From: Verrucomicrobiota bacterium | Lineage (GTDB): Bacteria > Verrucomicrobiota > Kiritimatiellia > CAJWTS01 | NCBI GenBank assembly: GCA_027623315.1 | Contig: JAQBYD010000002.1 | Span: 52,140-116,139, forward strand | Direction: 5' to 3' | Length of the DNA stretch: 64,000 nucleotides | Part shown: one piece after another, positions 641 through 63,260 of the stretch | Numbering within the stretch: the first letter of the stretch is position 1 | Layout: each line of letters starts with the position of its first letter | The notes under the pieces: model-generated | Database searches by the model: none | Seen by the model: only the letters and a program-made list of their open reading frames with translations | Told to the model about the DNA's origin: nothing | Made by a program: the position numbers and the translations under genes

Positions 641-1033
641 CGGCAGGGGTCTTCGGTCGCTGCGCTTTGCGTCCTCACGGGCGTAAAGCGGGGAGGAAAG
701 TCCGGACTCCGCAAGGCAGGGTGTCCCGATTAACGTCGGGAGGCCTCCTGGTAATCGGGAGGCACGGAAAGTGCCACAGAAAATAGACCGTCTCGGCCAC
801 GCCGCAAGGCGGGTGCCGGGATAAGGGTGAAATGGTGGTGTAAGAGACCACCGGGCCGTTTCGTAAGGCGCGGCCGCAGGGTAAACCCCACCTGGAGCAA
901 GATCAAATAGGGAACTGGAGGCCGCCTGTCTCGCTTCCACTTCGGTGGATACAGTTTCGGGTTGATCGCATAGATAAATGACCGAATCCCGCCCTCGGGC
1001 GGGACAACAGAATCCGGCTTATGGCCCCTGCTA
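641..1033 (+). ncRNA. rnpB: RNase P RNA, bacterial type A
   Basis: Universal RNase P motifs were read directly: GGAGGAAAGTCCGGACTCC, AGGGTGAAATGGTGGTGTAAGAGACCACC, GTAAACCCCACCTGGAGCAAGATCAAATAGGGAA and ACAGAATCCGGCTTA. A P1 helix pairs 5' GCAGGGG (643-649) with 3' CCCCTGC (1025-1031). Confidence 0.85.
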
Positions 1034-1929
1034 TCGAACGCGATACGCTGCTTCGATTCGCTGCTTTCATATTAATGTTGGTGGCGATCGGAGCAGCGTC
1101 TTTTTTTTACAGCGCGTTTCGCAGCCTTCCGGTTATTCCGCTGGCTGCCACGGGTGATTCCGCACGCCCGGTTCTCCCTGCCCCGCGGAAGATTTCGATC
1201 GATTGGAGCCTGTTTCGCCCAGCCAGCGTAACGGCTCGAGCGCGCGGCACGACGCATGCGGATAAGCGATACCGTTTGATCGGCACCTTCTCGATCTACT
1301 CGGACGGTGATAGTGCCGAGCCGGCTGTGCGCCGCGCGATCGTGGTCGATGACGAGATTGATGATGAGCTTATCGTCGGGGAGGGAGAGGTGGTCGGGGA
1401 GGCCCGCATCGTCCGCGTCTTCGATGATCACGTCACGATCAGGCTGAACGGAGTGGAGTCGGACCTCTGGCTCAGCATCGTCGCTCCGGATGCGCGCCAC
1501 ACCGGCCAGACGGCGGGAGCCGCGGGCGCTGATGGTTCCGGCGAGGACGCCGACGGCGGGCCTGGCTTCGGCGAGCTGGTCGGTGAGCATCTCTGGGTGA
1601 TGCAGCGCGATCGGTTGATGGACTACTATCGGGGACTACTCGACGAACCCGATCGGCTTCTCGCCGTCTTCGATTCAATGAAACCGGTCTACGGCGACAA
1701 CCGGCGCATTTCGGGTTACGTCCTCGACGTCGCCGGAGAAGGGGAGTTCTTTAAGTCCATGGGGCTGCAGGAAGGGGACGTCGTCCGACGCGTCAATGCC
1801 GTTCCGATGACCAGCCGAAGCAGGGCCGAGTACTTCATTCGTCAGTTCGCCGAGAAGGGAGCCAACGCGTTCGTCTTTGAGATCGAGCGCGACGGCAGCG
1901 TGGAGAAGCACGTCTACCAAATCCGGTAG
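1021..1929 (+). CDS. GspC/PilP-like protein: N-terminal TM helix, beta-rich middle domain, C-terminal PDZ-like domain
   Basis: 302-aa ORF with hydrophobic N-terminus AAFILMLVAIGAASFFYSAF. The C-terminus GYVLDVAGEGEFFKSMGLQEGDVVRRVNAVPM is PDZ-like. The annotated ATG at 1021 lies inside the rnpB 3' helix, so the real start is probably downstream (for example Met at 1075 or GTG at 1081). Confidence 0.4.
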   Translation: MAPAIERDTLLRFAAFILMLVAIGAASFFYSAFRSLPVIPLAATGDSARPVLPAPRKISIDWSLFRPASVTARARGTTHADKRYRLIGTFSIYSDGDSAEPAVRRAIVVDDEIDDELIVGEGEVVGEARIVRVFDDHVTIRLNGVESDLWLSIVAPDARHTGQTAGAAGADGSGEDADGGPGFGELVGEHLWVMQRDRLMDYYRGLLDEPDRLLAVFDSMKPVYGDNRRISGYVLDVAGEGEFFKSMGLQEGDVVRRVNAVPMTSRSRAEYFIRQFAEKGANAFVFEIERDGSVEKHVYQIR

Positions 1930-8609: not shown

Positions 8610-10106
8610 TCAGGGCGCGCTCTTGAGACCCAGTAGGCGGTTCACCGCGTCCGTATCGAGGAGGCCGTCGCCGTGCTTGTCCGCCGAGAGCGTCCCCGAA
8701 TCGGTCGTCAACGCTCCCAGCAGGGCGTCCAGGGCCTCCTCGCCGGTCGCCTCGGGGTGCTGGGTCAAGTAGCGGGCTAGAATGCCGGCCGTGTAGGCGC
8801 TGGCGATGGACGTACCCGCATACTGCCCCGGATCGCCCTCGTACCCGATCGGCATCTCGGCGGTGCCGGGCGCGGTCAGGGTGATGAAGGAGCCGTAGTT
8901 GGATTGTGCCCAGATGGAGCCGTCGGGGTTGCCCGCCGCGACAGCGATGACGCCGTCGAATCCAGCCGGATAGACCGGTTGGCCGATGGGATCGTTCCCA
9001 GCCGCGGCGACCATGATCACGTCTTCGGCTTTAGCATACGCGATGACGTCCTTGAGGAAATCGCTATCCGTGGTTGAGTACCAGCTCATGTTCAAGACGC
9101 GCGCACCGTTTTCTACCGCAATGCCGACGCTCCGGATCAATTCAAAATTGGAGGTGGTGCCGTCGTCGCCGAAGGCCCGGATGGCAACAATCGGAACGCC
9201 CTGCGCGCCGGATGCAGCGACACCCGTCGGCAGAACTACCCCCGCAGCGATCAACGCCATCTGCGTGCCGTGGCCGACCGGGTCGGTCATGTTGGTGGAC
9301 ATGCTCGTGACGTCGTATGCGGCCAGCACCAACGCGTCGAGTCCAGGCATGGACAGCAGGCCGGAATCCAGTACGGCGACGGGAATCGCACCGTTTGGTG
9401 GCGCTTCGGTTTCGGACGCTTCGCCGGCGACTGGAAGCAGTGAGGTCGCATCATAGGTCGATTCGGGAATCGGAATCGTGTAATTCGGCTCCGCCGCGGC
9501 GACTCTCGCGTCGCCGGCCAGCTTCTCGGCAAGTGCCGGAATGTCCTGATCCTCGGACAAGCGGATGCGGTAGATGCCCAGCGCCGGAATGCTCCCCACC
9601 ACCTGGCCGCCAACTTCGCGCAGGAGTCGCTGGGCGTCCTCCAGTGAGACGCCCGGCTTGAGCCTGAGCAGAATCTCGCGTTTCAGGTATCCCGCTGATG
9701 AATTTTCGCCGGCTTTAGGCGCGTCGCCACGGAGTTCGGCTCCAATGGCTTGTGTCTGGGTGCGGTGACCCGGACGATAGACGTGAATCTCGGAGAGACG
9801 CTGCAGATTGCCAAGCGGGCCTTCGATCTTCTCCCACCTTGCGGAGTAGTTCACATCGTCGAAGAGATGATCGAGCGCCTTCGCCAGGTCCTTGTCCTTA
9901 AAGGCCGCGGTGATCTTGACGTCGATCGCCGGGTCAAGGCGGGCATCGACTCCCATCGCGGCGAAAAGGGTCAGGATCTCGAGAACCGACGCATTTTTCG
10001 CATCCACCGACAAGCGATCGCCGCGGAGGTCGAACGCGATGGCAGCGCCCCCAGCGGGCGATGCCGCGAGCAGGAGCGTCAGGAGTAGACTCGAGAAGAT
10101 GCGCAT
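8610..10106 (-). CDS. Secreted S8 family (subtilisin-like) serine peptidase with an N-terminal accessory domain
   Basis: Signal peptide. Catalytic triad contexts VAVLDSG (Asp), HGTQMA (His) and GTSIASAY (Ser). Confidence 0.85.
   Translation of the reverse strand: MRIFSSLLLTLLLAASPAGGAAIAFDLRGDRLSVDAKNASVLEILTLFAAMGVDARLDPAIDVKITAAFKDKDLAKALDHLFDDVNYSARWEKIEGPLGNLQRLSEIHVYRPGHRTQTQAIGAELRGDAPKAGENSSAGYLKREILLRLKPGVSLEDAQRLLREVGGQVVGSIPALGIYRIRLSEDQDIPALAEKLAGDARVAAAEPNYTIPIPESTYDATSLLPVAGEASETEAPPNGAIPVAVLDSGLLSMPGLDALVLAAYDVTSMSTNMTDPVGHGTQMALIAAGVVLPTGVAASGAQGVPIVAIRAFGDDGTTSNFELIRSVGIAVENGARVLNMSWYSTTDSDFLKDVIAYAKAEDVIMVAAAGNDPIGQPVYPAGFDGVIAVAAGNPDGSIWAQSNYGSFITLTAPGTAEMPIGYEGDPGQYAGTSIASAYTAGILARYLTQHPEATGEEALDALLGALTTDSGTLSADKHGDGLLDTDAVNRLLGLKSAP

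Positions 10107-14160: not shown

Positions 14161-14190
<30 letters not shown>
14103..14190. repeat. Short intergenic repeat, family A copy 1 (contains the CGTGATTCGTGG core)
   Basis: aattcgtgggcaccaactcttcgtccagcggttcaactttcttcccactacattcgagtcagtcgtgcgattcgtggtttcccc. About 93% identical to 23014-23108. Spans the stop of ORF 13012..14103 and the last codons plus stop of metXW. Confidence 0.8.
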
Positions 14191-15942
<1,752 letters not shown>

Positions 15943-16122: not shown

Positions 16123-17076
16123 CTAGAACAACGACTCAAACGGCATCATCGACAGGTAGCGCTCGCCGGAATCGGGCAGAATCACCACGATGGTCTTGCC
16201 TTGGAACTCGGCCTCCTTCGCCAGGCGCGCGGCGACAGCGACGGCCGCGCCACACGAGATGCCCGACAGGATGCCTTCCTCGCGAGACAGGCGCTCGGCA
16301 TACTCGAAGGCTTCTTCGTTCGAGATCTTCTCGACGCGGTCAACCATGCCCAGGTCCAGGGTGCCGGGAATAAAGCCCGCCCCAATGCCCTGAATCGAAT
16401 GCGACTGCGGCTCCAACGGCTTGCCCGCGAGGGTCTGCGAAATGACGGGCGAGTTCTCCGGTTCCACCGCGACCGATATCAGCGGATGATTCTGGATCTC
16501 CTTGATATAGCGCGAGACGCCGCTGATCGTTCCCCCGGTCCCAACACCCGAGACGAGTGCGTCGATCTTTCCATCCGCGTCCTTCCAGATCTCGGGACCG
16601 GTCGTCTTAACGTGGATCGCGGGATTCGCCGGATTCTCAAACTGGTGCGGCATGAAGTAGCGGCCCGGGTTTTCTTCCACGAGTTCCAGCGCCTTGTCGA
16701 TCGCGCCGGTCATGCCCAGTGAGCCCTCGGTAAGAATGATCTCCGCACCCAGCGCTTCCAGAATCTTGCGGCGCTCGATAGACATGGTATGCGGCATCGT
16801 AATCGCGACCTTGTAACCGCGCGCCGCGCCCACAAACGCCAGCGCAATGCCGGTGTTTCCGCTTGTCGGCTCAATGATCTCCATGCCGGGCTTGAGCTTC
16901 CCGCTCTCTTCGCCGTCCCATACCATGGCGGCCCCGATGCGGCACTTGACTGAGTAGGCCGGATTGCGCCCTTCAATCTTGGCCAGCACAAGCGCATCGC
17001 TCTGGCCAATGATCTTGTTGAGTTTCACCAACGGCGTGTTGCCGATGGAAAGGGAGTTGTCTTCGAAATATGCCAT
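16123..17076 (-). CDS. cysM: Cysteine synthase (CysK/CysM family, PLP-dependent)
   Basis: Lys-PLP motif SVKCRIG and glycine-rich loop GTGGTISG. Sits beside sulfur-carrier genes as in the M. tuberculosis cysM-cysO-mec arrangement. Confidence 0.85.
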
Positions 17077-17176: not shown

Positions 17177-17605
17177 TCAGTCTTCGATGACGATCTGAAT
17201 CTGGCGCGGGATACCATCCTCCACATCATAGCCGCACAGGGACTCGTCATCCGCGACAGCGAGCGACGTGATCATGTAGGCCACGTCCGGCGTGTAGGCC
17301 AGCCGCAGATCCTCCTCGGACATGCGCGCCGCTGTCGCCGGATGACTGTGCCACACCGCCAGCATGTGCAGGCGATCCGTACGCATCGCCTTGATCGCGG
17401 CAAACTGCTCCGCGGGCACCATCGTGAAATGATCCGCCGAGGCGTCGGCATTGGTCATCGGGAAGACCCGCTCAATGCGATTGCCTGTCCCGGCCAGCAG
17501 GGCGCAGACCTCAAGGGGGGCACCGGCTTCGGCCACCCCCTTCAACTCCTCAACCATGGCCCGCGGAATATGAAGGACTCTGCTCATCGCGCCGAGAGGT
17601 CGCAA
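17177..17605 (-). CDS. JAMM/MPN+ metalloprotease (Mec+/HcyD/QbsD-like)
   Basis: JAMM motif in AVWHSHPATAARMSEED (H-x-H-x7-S-x2-D) plus upstream Glu. Overlaps the E1 gene 3' end. Confidence 0.75.
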   Translation of the reverse strand: MRPLGAMSRVLHIPRAMVEELKGVAEAGAPLEVCALLAGTGNRIERVFPMTNADASADHFTMVPAEQFAAIKAMRTDRLHMLAVWHSHPATAARMSEEDLRLAYTPDVAYMITSLAVADDESLCGYDVEDGIPRQIQIVIED

Positions 17606-18400: not shown

Positions 18401-18607
18401 TCAGGCGCCGCCGCCCATGAAGTAGAGTAGTTCTAACGTGTCACCGTCATTCAGCGTGGTGTTGTCGAATTTATCGCGATCAAGAATCTCGCCGTTAAGC
18501 TCGACGGACACCATGTCCGGCATCTTGACCTCCTGAACCTTCAGGAGTTCGGTGACGTTGATGCCGTCGCCCACATCGACGGATTCGCCATTTACGGTCA
18601 ACTTCAT
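18401..18607 (-). CDS. ThiS/MoaD-family sulfur-carrier protein (CysO/HcyS-like) with C-terminal ...GGGA, a Gly-Gly plus one-residue extension
   Basis: 68 aa beta-grasp-like sequence ending FMGGGA, located between the E1 and metY genes. Confidence 0.7.
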   Translation of the reverse strand: MKLTVNGESVDVGDGINVTELLKVQEVKMPDMVSVELNGEILDRDKFDNTTLNDGDTLELLYFMGGGA

Positions 18608-18623: not shown

Positions 18624-19874
18624 TTACATCTTGTTCAAGCTGTCGTCAAAGTCCGCCTTGATATCGTCAATGTGCTCAATGCCCACCGATACCCTGACCA
18701 GGTCCGGCGTGACTCCCATCTGGATCTGCTGCTCCTTCGTGGCCTCGCGGCAGATCGTAGACGCCGGATGTATGACGAGCGTCTTTACGTCGCCGAGGTT
18801 GGCCAGAATCTGCGCGCGCTTCAATCCATTCAGAAAGGTGAAAGACCGTTCGCGCGTCCCAAGGCGTAGCGTGAGCAGGGCCCCGTAGCGGCCACCAAAC
18901 TGGCGCGTGGCCACGCCGTAATCCGGATGAGACTCCAGTCCGATGTAGCGCGTCTCTTCGACACGTGAGTCGGCACTGAGCCATTCGGCCATCGCCTGGG
19001 CATTTTCGCAGTGCTGCTGCATGCGGACACCGAGCGTTTCCACACCCGTCGTCATCAAGAATGCGTTGAAGGGGGAGAGGCAGGCCCCGAGGTCGCGGTG
19101 GATCTGCGAGCGCATGGCCGCCATGAACGCGAATTTACCGGCACGCTTTTGATAGTCGTGAATTCGCTCGGCACGCGCATGACTCCAATCGTACGACCCC
19201 GCGTCCACGATGATGCCGCCGATCGCATTGGCGCTCCCGTTGATAAACTTGGAGGTGGAATGCACCACGATATCCGCGCCAAGCGTGGCCGGCCGGAACA
19301 AGTAGGGCGTGGAGGTCGTATTGTCGACCACGAGGAGGACGCCGTGCTCCCTGGCAACCTTGGCAATATCGGCGATCGCGGGGACGTCCAGGCGCGGATT
19401 GCCGATCGTCTCGACGAAGATCAGGCGCGTCTTGTCCGTGATGGCCTGCCGGTACGCCTCGGGGTCGGTGGCCTCGACAAACTTCGTGGTGATGCCGTAG
19501 CGGGGCAGGGTGCGGTCGAAGAGTGAATAGGTGCCGCCGAAGATGCTGGCACCCGAAATGATTTCGTCGCCCGCTCCAGCCAGCGTCATCACGGTGGTCG
19601 AGATGGCGGCCATGCCGGATGCGCAGACGAGCGATGCCAGCCCGTTCTCAAGCTGGGTCATGCGCGCCTCGAACGCCGTGAGCGTCGGGTTGCTCAGCCG
19701 GCTGTAGACGTAACCGAACTCGCGACCCGCGAAGACGTTTTCGATCGACTCCGCCGATTCATAGGCAAACGCCGTACTGGCGAAGATCGGCGCCTGTGTG
19801 GCACCCGTGGTCTTCTCCGGTTCGTATCCCCCATGAATAAACTGGGTTTCGATATGGAGTTCTTTGTCGCTCAT
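18624..19874 (-). CDS. metY: O-acetylhomoserine sulfhydrylase / aminocarboxypropyltransferase (MetY, PLP-dependent)
   Basis: Cys/Met-metabolism PLP family (…FIHGGYEPEKTTGA…, STSKFINGSANAIGG with PLP lysine). Start set at MSDKELHIETQ; the longer ORF reaches 19949 and would overlap cysNC. Confidence 0.85.
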   Translation of the reverse strand: MSDKELHIETQFIHGGYEPEKTTGATQAPIFASTAFAYESAESIENVFAGREFGYVYSRLSNPTLTAFEARMTQLENGLASLVCASGMAAISTTVMTLAGAGDEIISGASIFGGTYSLFDRTLPRYGITTKFVEATDPEAYRQAITDKTRLIFVETIGNPRLDVPAIADIAKVAREHGVLLVVDNTTSTPYLFRPATLGADIVVHSTSKFINGSANAIGGIIVDAGSYDWSHARAERIHDYQKRAGKFAFMAAMRSQIHRDLGACLSPFNAFLMTTGVETLGVRMQQHCENAQAMAEWLSADSRVEETRYIGLESHPDYGVATRQFGGRYGALLTLRLGTRERSFTFLNGLKRAQILANLGDVKTLVIHPASTICREATKEQQIQMGVTPDLVRVSVGIEHIDDIKADFDDSLNKM

Positions 19875-19900: not shown

Positions 19901-21739
19901 TCAGATCGCGTATTGCTGAATGACGTTCTTTTCCTTCAAGAGCTGGCACACCTGCTTGACCGCCTGTTTCGTGTCGGGGTTGGCGTCCAGCATTAGTGCC
20001 GACTCATATTTCCCAAACGAAGAATCACCCATATTCACGACGAGAACTTCGTTGGGTTGATTCAGCAGCTCGAGCGCCTCAACCTCGTAGTCATCCGCGT
20101 CCGTCACGGCCGTAATGAATATCTGTCCTGAATCGGTGAAGATTCGCGCAAGCTCGCCGAGGCGTCGAATATGCTCCATTCGAAACTCGGAGCCCACATC
20201 CGAATCCAATCCCGAGACCAGGTTCGCAGTCTGAAAATAGTACACCTTGAAGTTGGCGTAAAACAGCCTCTTCTCAAGGGCCCGCGCGAGCTCTTCCTTG
20301 CCGACTCCGACAGCGCCGGTCAAGACGACCATCTTGGCGCCGTGGTGGTAGATCGACGCGCGCTCCTGCGGGGCGATATCGCCGGTCCGCCACGAGAACT
20401 CGCGCGCCTGGATGTGCTCCTTGAGGGTCGAATCATCGGAGATGACGCTCTCGAGAATGATGCCGGCACCTGCGATTTCATGATTGTCCACGATCACCGC
20501 GCGCCCCGTCGGCGCAATCTCGTTTTCGAGGTCGAATGCCGTGGGTTTGGGCGTCTCGAGGATGCATTCAGCCACGTCATGCCGGTCGATCTGATTCTTG
20601 GTCGTGACGGTTGTCAGTTCGGATGCGTCCAGCACATGGATCACCTCCACCAGTTTGACCGGACTGCGCAGACCACCGACCTTCAGCTTGTAGGTCTTGC
20701 CCGTGACCATCGGGGCCTTGCCCATCCAGAAGAGGTTGACGCGCATGCGCGTCGATACATGCGGCTGTTGTTCGTCGGCGCGCACCATCAGTTCGCCGCG
20801 GTGCGCATAGATCTGTTCGGTTAGCGTGAAACCAACGACTTCGCCGGCAGATGCCGACGTCCGGTCCGGCGTATTGAAGAGTTCGATCGATTGGATCCGC
20901 GATCGCTTGCCCGACGGATGGAAGATCACCTCGTCGTCGACATTCAGCGTGCCCGTCGTGATGCGCCCGGCTACGAACCGTCGGTCGTCGCCCTGTTCGG
21001 TGAACTTGTAGATGTCCTGCACCGGGTAGCGGAACGGGAAGTCGACCAGGTCCTGCGGTTCGTCGAATCCGTCGATCTGATCCAGCACCGTGGGGCCGTC
21101 GTACCAGGGCATCGCCTCGGAGCGCCGCGCGATGTTGTCTCCATTGACGGCGCTGACGGGAATGTAGCTTACGGGTACCACGTTGATCTCGGTCAGGAAG
21201 TCCGTGTAGTCGGATTGGATCTGCTTGAAGTGATCTTCGCTGTGATCGACGAGGTCCATCTTGTTCACGATCACGCTGATCTGCCGGATGCCGAGCATGG
21301 AGACCATGAACCCGTGTCGCTTGGAGTTTTCCTGGATGCCCTCGCGGGCATCGATCACAATCGTGGCCGCCGCCGCTCGCGCAGCGCCGGTGATCATGTT
21401 CTTCAAGAACTCGATATGTCCCGGGGCGTCGATCAGAATGTATGGCCGCTTTTTCGTCCGGAAGAAGCAACGCGCCGTGTCGATCGTGATCCCCTGCGAA
21501 CGCTCGTCCTTGAGCGCATCGAGCAGAAATGCGTATTCAAATGGCTTGGCGTTGCGGCGGCACATCTCGCGGACCTGGTCGAGCTTGCCCTTTGGCAGCG
21601 CATCGGTGTCGGCCAGCAGGCGTCCGATCACGGTGCTCTTTCCATGATCGACATGGCCGATCATGACAATGCTCATGGTTCGTTCCTGTTCGGGAACGAC
21701 GGCCACGGGCGTGCTTTCCTGTTCAAGCGTGGTTGTCAT
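19901..21739 (-). CDS. cysNC: Bifunctional sulfate adenylyltransferase large subunit CysN fused to an APS-kinase-like C-terminal domain
   Basis: GTPase motifs [18 protein letters not shown]. The C-terminal about 180 aa align to adenylylsulfate kinase but the P-loop reads GAVGVGKEE instead of GxSGxGKS[TS]. Confidence 0.85.
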
Positions 21740-21978: not shown

Positions 21979-22866
21979 CTACATATATCCGTCGCGACGC
22001 AAGGTCTCCAATCCGCCTTCATCTTCTTTGTCCTGTGCGCGCCCGGAGCGTTCCGCAATGTTGGAGAACTTTCCGCCGCGCAACTCCTCGACAATCTCAC
22101 TGACATTCGTGGCGGTGGAGTCCACGGGGGTCGTGCAGGGATAGCATCCCAGGGATCGGTAGCGCTTGCCTTCTCCCTGGTCGAAATAGAGGGGCGTAAT
22201 CGGGATATTCTCGCGCTCAATGTATTCCCATATATTCAGTTCGGTCCAGTCCAGCAGGGGATGCACACGCACATGCGTGCCGGGCGCGAAGTCGGTCTTG
22301 TACTGGTCGAACAACTCGGGCGGTTGGTCCGAGACATCCCAGTCGTTCTCCTTGTCGCGCGGGGAGAAATAGCGCTCCTTGGAGCGACTGCCTTCCTCGT
22401 CCGCGCGGGCGCCGACGATGACGCCGGTGTACGGATCCTGGTTCTCGTCCGTGACGTATTTTTCGAGTTCATGGTCCAGGCGTTGGCGTGGCCACTCGCC
22501 CGACAGGGTATGCTTGAGCGCTTCGCTCTTGAGCGCCTTGCAGCACTCGAGGCGCGAGAGTTTGCCGGAGGGAAACGTGTCTCCGCGCGCCAGGGCTTTG
22601 GTGTTCTGTCCAACGATCATGTTCAGGTTCCATTCCAGCGCGAGGCGGTCGCGGTACTCGATCATCTCGGGAATCTTGAAACTGGTATCGATATGCACGA
22701 GCGGAATCGGGCAGTGCCCAAAGAAGGCCTTGCGCGTCAGCCAGAGCAATACCGTACTGTCCTTACCAATCGACCAGAGCATCACCAGGCTCTTGAACTC
22801 CCGGTACGCCTCGCGAAGCACATGGACACTCTGCGCTTCCAATCTCTCTAAATGATCCATCGCCAT
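21979..22866 (-). CDS. cysD: Sulfate adenylyltransferase small subunit CysD
   Basis: PAPS-reductase/ATP-PPase fold with SIGKDS motif (…[14 protein letters not shown]…) and the conserved CysD C-terminus. Confidence 0.9.
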
Positions 22867-23197: not shown

Positions 23198-23917
23198 CTA
23201 TATTCTGAAGTGCAGTCCGCATTCTTTCTGCTCCGGGTTTTCCCACCACCAGCGGCCGGCGCGGAGTTCTTCGCCTTCTTTGATCGCACGTGTGCAGGGC
23301 GCGCATCCGATCGAGGGATAGCCCGCGTCATGCAGTCGATTGTACGGGAGCTTGTGCTTGCGCACGTGATCCCATACCTCCGCATCCGACCACGTGGCCA
23401 GCGGATTCAACTTGATCATATTGCCATGTGCATCGTCAATCTCAACGACGGCGGTTTCAGTGCGCGTCACGCCCTGCGCACGTCGCTGTCCAGTGATCCA
23501 TGCCCGCAGATCCTTCAAGGCGCGACCCAGCGGCTCGACCTTACGGATATGACAGCATTCGTGACGGTTCTCCACGCTCTCGCGAAAGGAATGCGTGCCC
23601 TTCTCGCGCACGAGCGTCTGCACGGCGTCATGCCGCGGAAAGAACCACTCGATCTCGACGTCAAGTTTGCGTGCGACCCGGTCGGCACATTCGTACGTCT
23701 CCTCGTTGAGGCGGCCCGTATCGAGCGCGAAGACGCGCACGTCATCGCGGATCTGCTTCATGAGGTGCAACGCGCAGAGATCCTCCAGGCTGAAGCTGCA
23801 GGCCAGCGCGACATCCGGGCTGTACTCGGACAGACCCCAGCGCAAGACGGCATCGGCATCGTCGCTACCTGTATAGGGCGACGCGCTGTCGGCTGCTTTC
23901 TGTACGGGCTGGCTCAT
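23198..23917 (-). CDS. cysH: Assimilatory adenylylsulfate (APS) reductase, thioredoxin-dependent, Fe-S type
   Basis: CysH fold with the Cys-Cys...Cys-x-x-Cys cluster ligands (RHECCHIRKV, GCAPCTR) and C-terminal ECGLH motif, both typical of APS rather than PAPS reductases. Confidence 0.85.
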   Translation of the reverse strand: MSQPVQKAADSASPYTGSDDADAVLRWGLSEYSPDVALACSFSLEDLCALHLMKQIRDDVRVFALDTGRLNEETYECADRVARKLDVEIEWFFPRHDAVQTLVREKGTHSFRESVENRHECCHIRKVEPLGRALKDLRAWITGQRRAQGVTRTETAVVEIDDAHGNMIKLNPLATWSDAEVWDHVRKHKLPYNRLHDAGYPSIGCAPCTRAIKEGEELRAGRWWWENPEQKECGLHFRI

Positions 23918-23924
23918 ATCATCC

Positions 23925-24353
23925 TTAAATCACGTAAGCGTCGGATTTCTTTCCAGAGCGTTCCTGAATGCGGCGGCACATTTCCTTAATCGTGAGTCCT
24001 TCGAGCGTATCGTGAACGTGCTCCTCGATTTCTTTCCACATCTCCGCAAAGGGGCAGTACTCACCGGCGGCATCACCGTTGTTGGGTAGGGCAGGCCGGC
24101 TCTCGGTGAGCCGCACGATCGCCCCGACGGTGATCTCGGCCGGGGACTGCTGCAAGAAGTAGCCTCCCTTGGGGCCGCGCCGACTTCCCACCACTCCGGC
24201 ATTCTTCAGCGTAATCAAGATCTGCTCCAGAAATTTCACTGGGATTTCCTGCCTCCTGGCGATATGGGCGGTCGAGACCACACCCGCATCCCCATGCTGC
24301 GCCAAGTCCAGCACGGTCTTCAGTGCATATTCCGTTTTCTGCGATACACGCAT
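23925..24353 (-). CDS. Rrf2-family transcriptional regulator (CymR/IscR-like)
   Basis: Start set at MRVSQKTEYALK, the canonical Rrf2 start. Winged-helix region plus a Cys-containing C-terminus. Sits immediately upstream of cysH on the same strand. Confidence 0.75.
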   Translation of the reverse strand: MRVSQKTEYALKTVLDLAQHGDAGVVSTAHIARRQEIPVKFLEQILITLKNAGVVGSRRGPKGGYFLQQSPAEITVGAIVRLTESRPALPNNGDAAGEYCPFAEMWKEIEEHVHDTLEGLTIKEMCRRIQERSGKKSDAYVI

Positions 24354-36825: not shown

Positions 36826-36854
36826 TTGACATTACATATTCGCTTCACTAGATT
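36826..36854 (+). promoter_or_regulatory. Candidate sigma-70-like promoter upstream of hppA
   Basis: TTGACA (36826-36831), 17-bp spacer, TAGATT (36849-36854), about 60 nt upstream of the hppA start. Inferred from the sequence only. Confidence 0.3.
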
Positions 36855-36915
36855 GCGCGGCTTTCAGACCCGCCTCGGAGGGCTGATACAACTCACCAAC
36901 GAAGGGATAAGCAGT

Positions 36916-39308
<2,393 letters not shown>

Positions 39309-39309
<1 letters not shown>

Positions 39310-48294: not shown

Positions 48295-50121
48295 CTACGT
48301 CTCAAGATGCGACCTTTCGAGCATTTGGTTCAGGTTCTTGACGATCGCCGATTCCTGTCGGTCGCCCAATTGTAGTATTTCTTTCAGGCCGAGTGCAAGG
48401 TGCGGCACGTAGAGTTGCATATAGTTCTTTTTCCGCTCGGCTTCGGCCAGGCGATTTCGTTTGTTGAGATAGACCGATAGGCGCCGTCCGCCTTCCTGGA
48501 GCGCGGAGGCGGCCTCTTTCATGATTTCGCTGTAGTGGGCGACGGCATCCTTGCTTTCGCTGGTGAATGGGACCCAGACGCTGCACATGTGGACGGTGAC
48601 GACCATCGGTCCGATCGGCAGGCCCCGTCGCGGTTGTGGCAGGCCATAGTTCTTCCAGTTGACGTCCGAGACCGCGCGCGTGAGGGCGCAGCCACCGGCC
48701 ATGTAGAGTAGGGGCACGCGATTTGCAAAACGCAGCACACGCGCGGCGTCATCCGCCGGCAGATTTTCGTTCTCACCCGGCTTCGCGTAAGCAATTCCGA
48801 TCTCAATCTGAAATGGATTGCCCCGGTACACCGTGGGCGGTCGCGTGATGGCGGTGTAGAAATCCGCGTCGATCTCTTTCTTGAGCCCCATCAGGATCTG
48901 GTCTTCGCCGATGGGTGAGAGGCAGTCGGTCGGTGGACGCATCAACTTGGTCTCGGCGATGGCCTTGTAGAGTGCCTCGCTCTCGCGATGCGCGATGCGC
49001 GCCGGATTCGCTTTCGGGTTGAGCTTCGCTGTCTGGCAGATCTGCAGGGCGGCTTTCGAGCTGACGCGCGAAAAGTCCTGGTTCAGGGCCGCGCGTATCG
49101 TGCGCGCCGTCGTATCCTTCAACATCTGCATCAGGTTGCCGAGTTCGACACCGTGCGGATGCGGCTTGATCTCGTCCGGCGGCTTCGGGATGCGCTTGCT
49201 GACGCGGAAGAAGGTCACCCACGGAATGTCTGCTTCGGGAGGCGCCTCCTTCTTCGGCGCGGATCTGCCTTTGGCGCTCCTGGCGGACTTCCTGGAGGTC
49301 TCCGTCTCGTCTTCGCCTTTCTTAAGCAAGCGTACACGGTAGTAGAGCTGCAGATGCGGATTCACGATGGCGCACTGCGCGAGGTACTCGTCGACCGATA
49401 GTTTGCCGCGCACGTATGCCGCTTCCATCTCGATGCTGACCGACGTGCCGCGCCGATACGCGACGGGCTTGCCCGGCTTGCCGTTCTCGAGGGTGGGGAA
49501 GAAGGTCGGCTTCCAGTCGATCTCCTCGTCACTGAGTATCGTCGGCTTGTTTCTTCGCGCGTCGATCTGCACGGCAATCTTGTGCGCCTTGCTTCCGTGC
49601 CTCGATGTGATTGTGGTGGAACTGCCGGTCGTAAGCTGTCCGTACATGCCGGCCGCGCTGATGCCGATGCCCTGCTGGCCGCGCGACATGCGCAGGCGGT
49701 GGAATTTGGATCCGTAGAGCAATTTGGCGAAAATTTGCGGGACCTGCGCCTTGACGATGCCGGGCCCGTTATCGGTGATCTCTATACGGAACCGGTTCTC
49801 CCCGGTCTGTTGCATGTCGACGCTGATCTCCGGCAGAAGGTGCGCTTCCTCGCACGCATCCAGAGAGTTATCGACCGCCTCCTTGACGCAGGTTACGAGC
49901 GCACGTCGCGGGCTATCGAATCCAAGCAGATGCCGGTTCTTGAGGAAGAACTCCGATACGGAGATGTCCCGTTGACGAAGGGCCATGGACTCCGCCGTGG
50001 CGGGAGCCTGCCTGGGCCCGCGTTCGGTGGATCGGGTCGCCTTCTTCCTGGCGGGCGTGGCCCTTTTTGTTTTGGCGGGAGCGCTCTGCTTCTTCTTTGG
50101 GGGGGCCTTGCGTTTTGCCAT
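48295..50121 (-). CDS. top6B: DNA topoisomerase VI subunit B (GHKL ATPase, H2TH and transducer domains) with N-terminal Lys/Arg-rich extension
   Basis: Aligns by eye to archaeal Top6B: …SVSEFFLKNRHLLGFDSPRRAL…EAVDNSLDA… (N-box), ITDNGPGI (G1), LYGSKF…SRGQQGIGIS (G2), …KPHPHGVELG…, LRFANRVPLLY (transducer). N-terminus is MAKRKAPPKKKQSAPAKTKRATPARKKATRS. Confidence 0.8.
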   Translation of the reverse strand: MAKRKAPPKKKQSAPAKTKRATPARKKATRSTERGPRQAPATAESMALRQRDISVSEFFLKNRHLLGFDSPRRALVTCVKEAVDNSLDACEEAHLLPEISVDMQQTGENRFRIEITDNGPGIVKAQVPQIFAKLLYGSKFHRLRMSRGQQGIGISAAGMYGQLTTGSSTTITSRHGSKAHKIAVQIDARRNKPTILSDEEIDWKPTFFPTLENGKPGKPVAYRRGTSVSIEMEAAYVRGKLSVDEYLAQCAIVNPHLQLYYRVRLLKKGEDETETSRKSARSAKGRSAPKKEAPPEADIPWVTFFRVSKRIPKPPDEIKPHPHGVELGNLMQMLKDTTARTIRAALNQDFSRVSSKAALQICQTAKLNPKANPARIAHRESEALYKAIAETKLMRPPTDCLSPIGEDQILMGLKKEIDADFYTAITRPPTVYRGNPFQIEIGIAYAKPGENENLPADDAARVLRFANRVPLLYMAGGCALTRAVSDVNWKNYGLPQPRRGLPIGPMVVTVHMCSVWVPFTSESKDAVAHYSEIMKEAASALQEGGRRLSVYLNKRNRLAEAERKKNYMQLYVPHLALGLKEILQLGDRQESAIVKNLNQMLERSHLET

Positions 50122-62100: not shown

Positions 62101-62280
62101 GCATCGGACCCACGGGTTCACGTGCATGCGGTCGAGTTGTTCATAAAGCTGGGTGAGGATGAGAAGGCGCGCGGCATGCTGAAGGTGCTGCGTGGCAAGC
62201 AAGATTCGCTCCCCGATGACTACAAGTCCCGGCTGGATGCACTCCTTACAGCCATGAGTTCAGGTACCGAGGCGTCCTAA
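59104..62280 (+). CDS. DUF2723-like polytopic membrane domain (GT-C / PMT-like putative glycosyltransferase) fused to a long C-terminal TPR-repeat region
   Basis: About 12 N-terminal TM helices (residues 1 to about 400) then more than 10 TPR-like units (…AFALYDRALAILPDN…, …AIAFYESSLARKPSS…). 1058 aa. Confidence 0.7.
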   Translation: MHRDEHPKKPLPAALVHWIGLGLGSLAAATYLCTLSQGPFPGESARLIASYTGLLPMLPTGQPVWHLLALLGRAIPGVGPDTVLNVVSALLGGVSVGLMYAVVGRLIRYTLHDNTHFAASADRTGMVGGVCAALFLAFSSAFWTVSTRAHTLSLGITLLLGVAWLLLRFTETGHTVFLYALCALLGLAAVEFATVLLFVPIFAFWTFYLLWQRDLIRTGIIARGTAWLLFGLSAYLWGAWLISSTEAYELSQHESYWDVLVYTWRNQYLLLARSLPRVGWLLVVLMTVVPWAASMILMKRGLSGEWDWGFGLLHIVLTVISIGMLFNIPIMPWPMFGQSNLLVTPYLLGAVVYGYVICYWFQLAQWRQIRAETDPSRRRASVACGAIAIAGLVVSIIPLFRNYADTNARGAGHVNALVHEIINDLSDDACLVTDGVLDANLVIAASRLGRDDVKVVNLFGGRSAPYVQHVLNILESPTLAGLGDVGVGPILKEWIRGHPEDMRRAVVMPVSDIWEGSGHVAVPDRFGFVGSNSADLNITSVEESERFWTAVVPGLQDLAAGGNDMLTAIGAHYLRHLSLIANDLGVAMEDQGDDGRAFALYDRALAILPDNVSAKLNQYTMIEQGRHEGSADEYRQRLDAVVERAGKRTVWALAHTYGYVRAPAASIDLGMVWAASGRRSAALREFNRSRSVQFEAPPAARAALADVYLKQFDLDTSQDLYRSVLDEQPQNLHALLGMSRIASARGEIDEARTWAGKAADAGAPESAILLESALLALQQRELSDGRALLESLVLQAPADPTAWALLSDTVSRLNDQEALARCKQSMLRLESKNYLVYAALGAIASGEKDIKQAIAFYESSLARKPSSVSIIRRLAVLHLADGQESKAMQYVRILINRDSGDSFGNWMLARLQVERGELEMAESTLKRCMTRHPHPVIMNDLAVLLLEQARFEEAERVLKDGLQRWPGLYLGWSNLARVLMASDRDQEALVAFRNSLQINASDPRVHVHAVELFIKLGEDEKARGMLKVLRGKQDSLPDDYKSRLDALLTAMSSGTEAS

Positions 62281-63260
62281 TGACGGCACCACCAACGATC
62301 AGCGAATTCCTGAGACGTCACGGTCGCCACTTTAACTCGGCGGCCCTGGTCGATGCTGCGGAGGCCTATCGCAAGCATCTGGATGATGATGGGATCATGA
62401 TGCTCACCATGGCGGGGGCTATGAGCACCGCCGAGATCGGGCTTTCGCTGGCGGAGATGATCCGGCAGGAGAAGGTGCACGCGATCTGCTGTACCGGAGC
62501 GAACCTTGAGGAGGATGTCTTTAACCTGGTGGCGCATGACCACTATGTACGCGTGCCGCACTACCGTGATCTCTCGGCGAAGGATGACGAGGATCTGCTG
62601 AAACGTCATCTCAACCGCGTGACGGATACCTGTATTCCTGAGGAGGAGGCCATGCGGCGGTTGGAGCGGGCAATCCTGGATTTGTGGGTGGCTGCGGATC
62701 AGAAGGGCGAGCGATACCTTCCACACGAGTTCTTCTACCGGGCGATCCTCTCCGGTGCGCTCAAGGAATACTACCAGATCGATCCGGCCGATAGTTGGAT
62801 GGTGGCCGCCGCAGAGAGGAATCTGCCGCTCTACGTCCCCGGCTGGGAGGACTCCACTCTCGGTAACATCTATGCGGGGCATTGCCTGAAAGGAACCATC
62901 CAGAATCCGGTCACGGTCAAGAGCGGCATCGAGTATATGATGACCCTCGCCGATTGGTACCAGTCCGAGTCGAAAGACCGCGCCATCGGATTCTTTCAGA
63001 TCGGCGGCGGGATCGCAGGGGATTTTCCGATCTGCGTGGTACCCATGCTCGAGCAGGATCTGCAGGTCGAGAATGTGCGCAAGTGGGGCTATTTCTGCCA
63101 GATCAGCGATTGTACCACCAGCTACGGTTCCTACTCCGGTGCCGTGCCGAATGAGAAAATTTCATGGGGTAAGCTTGCCGTGGATACGCCGAGTTTCATT
63201 ATCGAGTCGGACGCTAGTATCGTCGCGCCCCTCGTCTTCGCCTACGTTCTGGGGTGGTGA
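62280..63260 (+). CDS. Deoxyhypusine synthase-like protein (bacterial DHS / homospermidine-synthase-like)
   Basis: DHS-family NAD-binding signatures (…GAMSTAEIGLSL…, CTGANLEEDVF, …IGGGIAGDF…). Start overlaps the upstream gene's stop. Confidence 0.75.
   Translation: MTAPPTISEFLRRHGRHFNSAALVDAAEAYRKHLDDDGIMMLTMAGAMSTAEIGLSLAEMIRQEKVHAICCTGANLEEDVFNLVAHDHYVRVPHYRDLSAKDDEDLLKRHLNRVTDTCIPEEEAMRRLERAILDLWVAADQKGERYLPHEFFYRAILSGALKEYYQIDPADSWMVAAAERNLPLYVPGWEDSTLGNIYAGHCLKGTIQNPVTVKSGIEYMMTLADWYQSESKDRAIGFFQIGGGIAGDFPICVVPMLEQDLQVENVRKWGYFCQISDCTTSYGSYSGAVPNEKISWGKLAVDTPSFIIESDASIVAPLVFAYVLGW

Follow-up and report, generated by a model that had tools for sequence, protein, structure and literature searches.

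A CysN GTPase fused to a degenerate APS-kinase-like domain that is probably retained for a non-catalytic role

The DNA analyzed here, a stretch of 64,000 nucleotides from a Verrucomicrobiota bacterium of the Kiritimatiellia (hereafter the window), encodes a protein in which the CysN GTPase of ATP sulfurylase is followed by a domain related to CysC, the adenosine 5′-phosphosulfate (APS) kinase. The question raised by this gene is whether the C-terminal domain produces 3′-phosphoadenosine 5′-phosphosulfate (PAPS) or is kept for some other purpose. The explanation we consider likely is that a working CysN GTPase is fused to a dead pseudo-kinase kept for a non-catalytic job, as a dimer scaffold bearing an exposed tail. 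The gene and its two parts are located as follows.

19901..21739, minus strand: open reading frame (ORF) of the fusion protein, 612 aa
20450..21739, minus strand: CysN proper, aa 1-430, GTPase domain plus EF-Tu-like domains II and III
19901..20449, minus strand: C-terminal domain, aa 431-612 plus stop codon (residues 431-612 correspond to 19904..20449), APS-kinase fold without the catalytic apparatus

Residues 1-430 scored just above the cutoff of TIGR02034 (337.4 versus 336.1) and matched Pfam GTP_EFTU with 143 bits, as well as GTP-eEF1A_C. The GTPase motifs read from the translation are intact (G1 GHVDHGKST, G3 DAPGH and G4 NKMD), and the protein is classed as a member of the CysN family that is predicted to work like CysN. 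An assembly or frameshift artefact was rejected, since the identical protein was found on 5 contigs from 4 independent assemblies.

The C-terminal domain, which an initial annotation of this DNA had aligned with CysC and placed at 19901-20450, indeed matched Pfam PF01583 with an E-value of 2.8e-11 and solved APS kinases with an E-value of 1e-9 (phmmer against the PDB), which points to homology well beyond chance. The α/β fold of APS kinases is kept in the structure predicted by AlphaFold2 (AF2), with a predicted local distance difference test (pLDDT) score of 87, and 1m8p and 1j70 are among the fold matches of the model. The gathering score of PF01583 was passed (44 versus 21.1), but the match is limited to profile positions 4-81 of 152. 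The thresholds of TIGR00455 (54.7 versus 138.7) and PRK03846 (65 versus 163) were not reached, nor was that of NF004035 (PRK05506), the model for bifunctional CysN/CysC (431.9 versus 715), where the match stops at profile position 560 of 632. The elements of this domain, hereafter the degenerate domain, are listed below.

20291..20317, minus strand: relict P-loop GAVGVGKEE, aa 475-483, with Glu in place of the Mg-binding Ser/Thr after Lys
20222..20236, minus strand: FQTAN at the site of LDGDN (residues 477-481 of Mycobacterium tuberculosis CysC), both Asp lost
20102..20182, minus strand: helix α2 and strand β3, the most conserved stretch of the domain; α2 is a dimer-interface helix in APS kinases
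20045..20095, minus strand: helix α3 and LLNxPNE motif; second dimer-interface helix
19997..20029, minus strand: 11-residue loop between β4 and β5, at the site of the two-helix lid (~40 residues, KGLYK...FTGID)
19904..19924, minus strand: C-terminal tail VIQQYAI-COOH, carrying the family-wide [Y/F]-x-[I/L]-COOH motif

The initial annotation had pointed to a Walker A motif lacking Ser/Thr after Lys and to an altered FISP-like motif, proposing alignment to active CysC sequences as a check. In HMMER alignments to solved APS kinases, GAVGVGKEE falls under GLSASGKST or GLSGAGKTT, FQTAN under LDGDN and ITAV(TD) under ITSF(ISP), the FISP motif of the kinases thus reading AVTD. The LDGD(N) motif of APS kinases binds Mg and the ribose of APS. 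MAFFT alignment with intact fused and stand-alone CysC sequences from genomes gave the same register as HMMER, with a gap of 31-40 columns at the lid, and so did structure comparison based on the AF2 model. A misaligned Walker A was rejected on the agreement of the three methods. The motif is truly lost, as the translation and all three alignments agree, and the damage is larger than first noted: deletion of the lid, of ~40 residues, is the largest lesion, and with it the catalytic Lys and the adenine-stacking Phe are gone. The lesions were mapped onto the residues of M. tuberculosis CysC described in PMC4373884.

K456 of M. tuberculosis CysC: K481 here (kept)
S458: E483 here
D478 and D480: Q503 and A505 here
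R483: V508 here
F492: gap here
R497: R520 here
Lid 552-581 (K562, H575, F576): absent here

Lid residues K562 and F576 of the M. tuberculosis enzyme are required for catalysis and APS binding, and the role of its LDGD motif and of D480 has been described (PMC4373884). Among the features by which an APS kinase is recognized, the fold is present in the degenerate domain, whereas a Walker A of the form GxxGxGK[S/T], LDGD(N), the lid and an equivalog-level score for TIGR00455 are missing. Because these four defining features were tested and not found, the domain would fall outside the APS kinases and the bifunctional CysNC proteins in the functional sense, and in the explanation that we consider likely as a whole it would be unable to phosphorylate APS.

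Conservation was assessed in the best 120 database homologues (57-66% identical, ~600 aa) and in 83 further loci (L085-L167), which came from a pattern search of metagenome contigs and from three look-ups; entropy values were taken from a 61-sequence alignment. Source names among the 120 homologues include Kiritimatiellia, Lentisphaerae, Verrucomicrobia, Chlorobi, Elusimicrobia, Omnitrophota, Endomicrobiia, Dehalococcoidales and Clostridium/Acetivibrio, and the clade spans bacteria of the Planctomycetes-Verrucomicrobia-Chlamydiae (PVC) group, Chlorobi, Elusimicrobia, Firmicutes, Acidobacteria and Spirochaetes. All 45 homologues inspected in alignment carry the short form of the domain. GxxxxGK is absent from 96 of the 120, and the other 24 have R, E, Q or K after GK, with no case of S/T; GxxxxGK[ST] was found in none of the 120 homologues and in none of the 83 loci. 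Entropy of the P-loop columns (476-483) is ~3 bits, with Lys481 kept in 34% of the sequences. By contrast, residues 521-545 show 0.57 bits and are more conserved than the GTPase domain (0.82 bits). The two best-conserved elements of the degenerate domain are residues 520-536 (α2) and 550-559 (α3). In the α2/β3 stretch G528-I533, T535, G538, I540 and F541 are invariant, and the invariant or almost invariant residues of the α3 region are D549, L556, L559, N560 and P562; the list of invariant residues elsewhere in the domain, and partly shared with that region, comprises R446, E447, W450, R460, H466, K469, E489, L492, G510, L511, L559, N560, P562 and L601. The coexistence of invariant blocks with a variable P-loop argues that purifying selection acts on the domain while leaving its active site free to change.

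These data favor the initial proposal of a dead kinase domain, as all APS-kinase determinants that can be read from the sequence are missing in the window and in the whole clade. They also favor its retention for another purpose, a non-catalytic role being a reasonable reading because the domain is conserved in spite of the lost determinants. Weak residual APS-kinase activity is very improbable, and so is a functionless, decaying remnant. The gathering score of PF01583 is passed and the window protein keeps GxxGxGK, but the lid Lys, DGD and the Ser/Thr are lost and some relatives encode a separate cysC (see below), which speaks against residual activity, while decay is at odds with the invariant blocks and with the absence of truncations across a clade of such breadth.

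In a neighbor-joining tree of the CysN part, all short-domain proteins form one clade, and the sister lineages L016 and L017 carry intact kinases. This topology fits one ancient inactivation event in a CysNC fusion. A profile of the degenerate domain was also compared with a representative library, and nearly all of the best 150 matches have the domain at or within ~10 residues of the C-terminus; these matches are mostly gene fragments and so give no verdict on stand-alone forms.

A second kind of damaged fused kinase was observed in a Nannocystis metagenome-assembled genome (MAG; L025, 10001-11644) and in a Planctomycetaceae MAG (L036, 8131-9735). In these proteins the P-loop is intact (GLSGAGKTT or GLSGSGKTE), DGD has changed to DGT or DGP, KGLY to DGFY or VGLY and FTG to VPG. 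In L036 an intact stand-alone cysC is encoded as well, just upstream of cysD and on the opposite strand. Kinase function may have been lost from CysNC fusions more than once, independently.

The fusion gene is part of an operon-like run on the minus strand, in the order Rrf2 regulator, cysH, cysD, fusion gene, metY, ThiS-like, ThiF/MoeB-like, JAMM, cysK and metX-metW. The other members of the run are the following.

23925..24353, minus strand: Rrf2-family regulator ending in DAYVI-COOH, a CymR-like tail (Pfam Rrf2, 111.6 bits)
23198..23917, minus strand: CysH of the APS-reductase type (TIGR02055, 255 versus 235.3; CC121, CAPC205-208, ECGLH232)
21979..22866, minus strand: CysD, catalytic subunit of ATP sulfurylase (NF003587, 351.5 bits versus a cutoff of 195; PP-loop SIGKDS)
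18624-19874, minus strand: metY
18401-18607, minus strand: ThiS-like gene, 68 aa
17584-18393, minus strand: ThiF/MoeB-like gene
17177-17587, minus strand: JAMM protease
16123..17076, minus strand: CysK, O-acetylserine sulfhydrylase A (TIGR01139, 434 bits versus 351)
14161-15942, minus strand: fusion of metX (homoserine O-acetyltransferase) and metW, 593 aa

The assignment of CysH to the APS-reductase type, made initially from its CC, CxxC and ECGLH motifs, was upheld by those motifs and by its TIGR02055 score. Both cysD and a cysH with CC, CxxC and ECGxH accompany the fusion gene in all 55 loci having at least 1.6 kb of upstream sequence, the order cysH-cysD-fusion gene being strictly kept in the 55, and cysD lies directly upstream of the fusion gene in the window as in every locus with enough flank. 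Since CysH is of the APS-reductase type in all of them, the pathway is predicted to need no PAPS. The Fe-S motif of CysH is linked to APS specificity, although some Fe-S CysH enzymes accept both APS and PAPS; here the motif points to a preference for APS. APS made by CysD-CysN would go straight to the [4Fe-4S] CysH, encoded two genes upstream, and would be converted to sulfite and sulfide to feed the ThiS/ThiF/JAMM-MetY-CysK module encoded downstream. A small ferredoxin-type (NIR_SIR) sulfite reductase is encoded beside cysH in 40 of the 42 loci with at least 6 kb of upstream sequence. No sulfite reductase was found in the 64-kb window, and that of this genome must lie outside it. A ThiF homologue occurs in 22 of the same 42 loci, and JAMM and MetY are found with it in most of these (not counted). 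Photoferrotrophic Chlorobi with 'CysNC' and CysH in their genome listings have been shown experimentally to assimilate sulfate (PMC5498476); Chlorobium proteins (P0102) belong to the family described here, and the strains tested may carry one.

The initial annotation had also proposed a search of the genome for a stand-alone cysC. Within the window none was found among ORFs of at least 70 aa (phmmer, using as probe an approximate sequence of E. coli CysC), and a separate cysC was absent within 10 kb in all 83 further loci (probe, CysC of L015). The large ORFs of the window include no sulfotransferase or CysQ. In three loci of the outer clade, by contrast, one from Geotalea sp. SG265 (L015) and two from MAGs (L013 and L014), an intact stand-alone cysC adjoins cysD and the fusion gene. 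The P-loop of these CysC proteins is intact (GLSG[SC]GKST), and those of L014 and L015 match Pfam APS_kinase at positions 2-152 of 152 with ~230 bits. The gene sets of L014 and L015 are embedded in polysaccharide clusters with glycosyltransferases, together with a Wzm/Wzt exporter in L015 and a CysQ-like phosphatase in L014. These neighbors would amount to a natural complementation test, in which the fused domain does not appear to supply PAPS where PAPS is needed.

Two other features of these loci were recorded. In L015, cysD and the fusion gene are separated by a gene (9534-10001) whose product is a '23S rRNA intervening sequence protein' (PF05635). The contigs of L013 and L014 are labelled Candidatus Woesearchaeota yet carry the bacterial-type set of cysD, fusion gene and cysC, which could reflect mis-binning or lateral transfer.

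The role initially suggested for the domain was structural or allosteric, as in fungal ATP sulfurylases. Filamentous fungi have fused APS-kinase-like domains that bind PAPS for regulation (PMC3779200), and an allosteric sensor of PAPS or APS, comparable to the C-terminal domain of the Penicillium chrysogenum enzyme, would agree with the presence of 1m8p among the fold matches, with the partial preservation of R520 (R497 in M. tuberculosis) and of an IRR motif, and with the GxxGxGK kept in the window. However, the determinants of APS and PAPS binding (D480, R483, F492 and the lid residues K562, H575 and F576 in M. tuberculosis numbering) are mostly substituted or deleted, the P-loop is unconstrained across the family, and there is no PAPS to sense in a pathway where cysC is absent. 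Nucleotide sensing of the Penicillium type is thus quite unlikely, and the structural half of the suggestion is the one that the data favor.

In other sulfate-activating complexes, channelling reportedly links the sulfurylase and kinase sites. A domain that passes APS from CysD to the APS reductase, by channelling or as a docking site for CysH, would suit the constant order of cysH, cysD and fusion gene in the 55 loci, and the tail described below is missing from relatives not linked to cysH. Nevertheless, the canonical pocket for APS is destroyed and the domain persists in outer-clade members that have no cysH, both of which make this function unlikely.

A structural role is preferred because helices α2 and α3 are the most conserved part of the domain and form the dimer interface in APS kinases, being its main constituents in M. 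tuberculosis CysC (PMC4373884). According to this explanation, the C-terminal 170-180 residues would preserve the APS-kinase core α/β fold without phosphorylating APS. They would most likely hold two CysD-CysN heterodimers together through the old dimer interface, and a partner protein would also be able to recognize the conserved, exposed [Y/F]-x-[I/L] tail that they present. Several points weigh against it. The window protein, unlike 80% of the family, keeps GxxGxGK and could bind phosphate or a nucleotide. The lack of kinase activity, like dimerization and the existence of a tail partner, is something we infer, in the case of the kinase from sequence. Helices α2 and α3 could equally be conserved for packing of the core, or for contact with CysN or CysD. 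Finally, the search for cysC in this genome covers 64 kb of it.

The tail provides a second conserved trait. All 120 homologues and all 83 loci (inner clade) have a C-terminal [Y/F]-x-[I/L]-COOH, versus 1 of 69 other CysN or CysNC proteins. Among the 120, 91 end in [YF]-x-I and 29 in Leu, Asp or Glu occupies position P4 in 116, and five end exactly in DYVI; the window protein ends in QYAI. Outer-clade members linked to cysC lack the tail. The last three residues have pLDDT values below 50 in both structure models, as expected for a linear motif. This ending resembles the CysK-binding tails of serine acetyltransferase (SAT) and CymR. Peptides DYVI (Arabidopsis SAT) and DFSI (M. tuberculosis SAT) are micromolar competitive inhibitors of CysK (PMC3388911), the terminal Ile is essential in CysK-docking tails (PMC3388911; PMC5562914), and the same device is used by CdiA-CT and EGL-9 (PMC5562914). 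The tightest peptides have Tyr at P3 and Ile at P1, e.g. MNYDI with 0.22 μM on Salmonella CysK (PMC9547175), and CysK accommodates the tails of Staphylococcus aureus CysE (DDYII) and CymR (YMFYI) in its active site (bioRxiv 10.1101/2024.09.19.614015).

The Rrf2 regulators and the CysK of these loci bear on the same trait. All 24 Rrf2 homologues from related loci (including L005, L008 and L092-L144) end in [YF]-x-I, several of them in MFYI and that of the window in AYVI, whereas an Rrf2 protein from an unrelated locus has no such ending. The regulators encoded beside cysH are probably CymR-type repressors with CysK as co-repressor, a role not described before in these phyla. The CysK of the window aligns to E. 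coli CysK with 431 bits, the motifs TSGNTG, QFxNPANP and GIGAGF being identical, and is predicted to be a canonical cysteine synthase A with an intact cleft.

It is possible, though short of likely, that the degenerate domain serves mainly as a platform for a CysK-docking tail, with [D/E]-Y-x-I-COOH entering the active site of O-acetylserine sulfhydrylase and tying sulfate activation to O-acetylserine and sulfide. This would be a compatible extension of the scaffold explanation. In its favor are the near-exclusive occurrence of the tail in the inner clade, including the five DYVI endings, its similarity to the known tails of SAT, CysE and CymR, the uniform endings of the Rrf2 regulators, the canonical CysK of the window and the absence of the tail from outer-clade members linked to cysC and polysaccharide genes. 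Against it, the 29 endings in Leu contrast with the Ile described as invariant in known CysK partners, only ~4 residues apparently protrude beyond the folded domain, and cysK lies within 10 kb in a minority of loci only. Moreover, CysK docking is read from the sequence of the tail, which could instead contact CysH, CysD or another subunit of the same kind. We therefore put forward only tentatively that the pseudo-kinase presents a CysK-docking tail. Just as speculative is the wider notion of a widespread clade in which a pseudo-kinase scaffold plugs the CysK active site with its Y-x-I tail, forming an undescribed ATP sulfurylase-cysteine synthase complex. In such a complex, the levels of O-acetylserine and sulfide would control sulfate activation post-translationally, parallel to a CymR-like Rrf2 repressor acting with the same type of tail on the same hub. 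Should binding of the tail to CysK prove real, the CysK hub would extend its reach to the first step of sulfate assimilation, and cysteine demand would be coupled directly, at the post-translational level, to the activation of sulfate, which costs ATP and GTP.

With regard to the rest of the operon, a scan with Rfam revealed no riboswitch near it. The genes for MetX and MetW, here encoding a single protein, are separate and adjacent in an Elusimicrobia locus (L087). The ThiS-like sulfur carrier ends in MGGGA, one residue beyond Gly-Gly, and its gene adjoins those of the ThiF-like, JAMM and MetY proteins. Elsewhere in the window, an RNase P RNA of bacterial class A was found at 641-1037 (plus strand, 220.8 bits), its 3′ end slightly overlapped by an ORF without Pfam match (1021-1929). 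A topoisomerase VI B-subunit-like protein (48295-50121, minus strand) and a deoxyhypusine-synthase-like protein (62280-63260, plus strand) are of types more typical of archaea and eukaryotes, and a membrane H+-pyrophosphatase is encoded at 36826-39309 (plus strand).

Public names for this family disagree: its members (P0001-P0120 and P0271-P0275) are called 'bifunctional enzyme CysN/CysC' (JGI), 'adenylyl-sulfate kinase' or 'GTP-binding protein' (NCBI), and a member of the 90%-identity cluster of the window protein is deposited as 'GTP-binding protein [Verrucomicrobia bacterium]'. The conclusion of a dead kinase is predicted to generalize from the window to a large, mis-annotated clade. Metabolic reconstructions that read these proteins as CysNC would wrongly credit many anaerobes and MAGs with PAPS synthesis, the exposed groups including Kiritimatiellia, Lentisphaerae, Chlorobi, Elusimicrobia, Clostridia and Omnitrophota. 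A dead CysC domain on CysN was not found described in the literature searched, in which subscription journals were thinly covered. The family would offer a clean, datable case of a bacterial pseudoenzyme under continuing selection, parallel to an independent event in the Sat-type sulfurylases of fungi.

Among known systems, the bifunctional CysN/CysC proteins (M. tuberculosis Rv1286, Rhizobium NodQ, PRK05506) share with the window protein an N-terminal CysN GTPase, a C-terminal APS-kinase fold and a CysD partner, and L016 and L017, its closest sister lineages in the CysN tree, belong to this type. The window protein lacks their P-loop Ser/Thr, LDGD motif and lid as well as the Arg and Phe that bind APS, and has in addition a conserved Y-x-I tail. 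A likeness of gene neighborhood only links the window to the thiocarboxylate cluster of Wolinella succinogenes, where, as here, genes for a ThiS-like protein with a GG-Ala end, a ThiF-like protein, JAMM and MetY lie beside cysH, cysD and cysN. In the homocysteine pathway of that organism, a JAMM protease reportedly trims the extra Ala of the sulfur carrier. The work on HcyS, HcyF, HcyD and MetY with the sulfate-reduction genes of W. succinogenes (Krishnamoorthy and Begley 2011, as cited in PMC5764234) concerns the sulfur-carrier steps.

As to the tail, proteins that dock on CysK (CysE, CymR, CdiA-CT of E. coli 536 and Caenorhabditis elegans EGL-9) likewise expose an [acidic]-[Y/F]-x-I-COOH ending, and the DYVI of some family members is the ending of Arabidopsis SAT. 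Unlike these known partners, a quarter of the family ends in Leu, and the tail is borne by a pseudo-kinase attached to a subunit of ATP sulfurylase, which is not known to partner CysK. As to the domain itself, the ATP sulfurylases of P. chrysogenum and Saccharomyces cerevisiae (Met3) also fuse a dead domain of APS-kinase fold, with a non-catalytic role, to a sulfate-activating enzyme (PMC3779200). In the fungal-type Sat series this domain is active in Aquifex, forms an allosteric PAPS site in Penicillium and has an undefined function in yeast Met3 (PMC3779200). The fungal partner, however, is a Sat-type ATP sulfurylase, non-homologous to CysN of the EF-Tu family, and the Penicillium domain keeps its ligand site, whereas the residues of the APS/PAPS site are mostly lost here. 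The degenerate domain would therefore seem closer in spirit to the vestigial domain of the yeast enzyme, a structural or docking role being likelier than nucleotide sensing.

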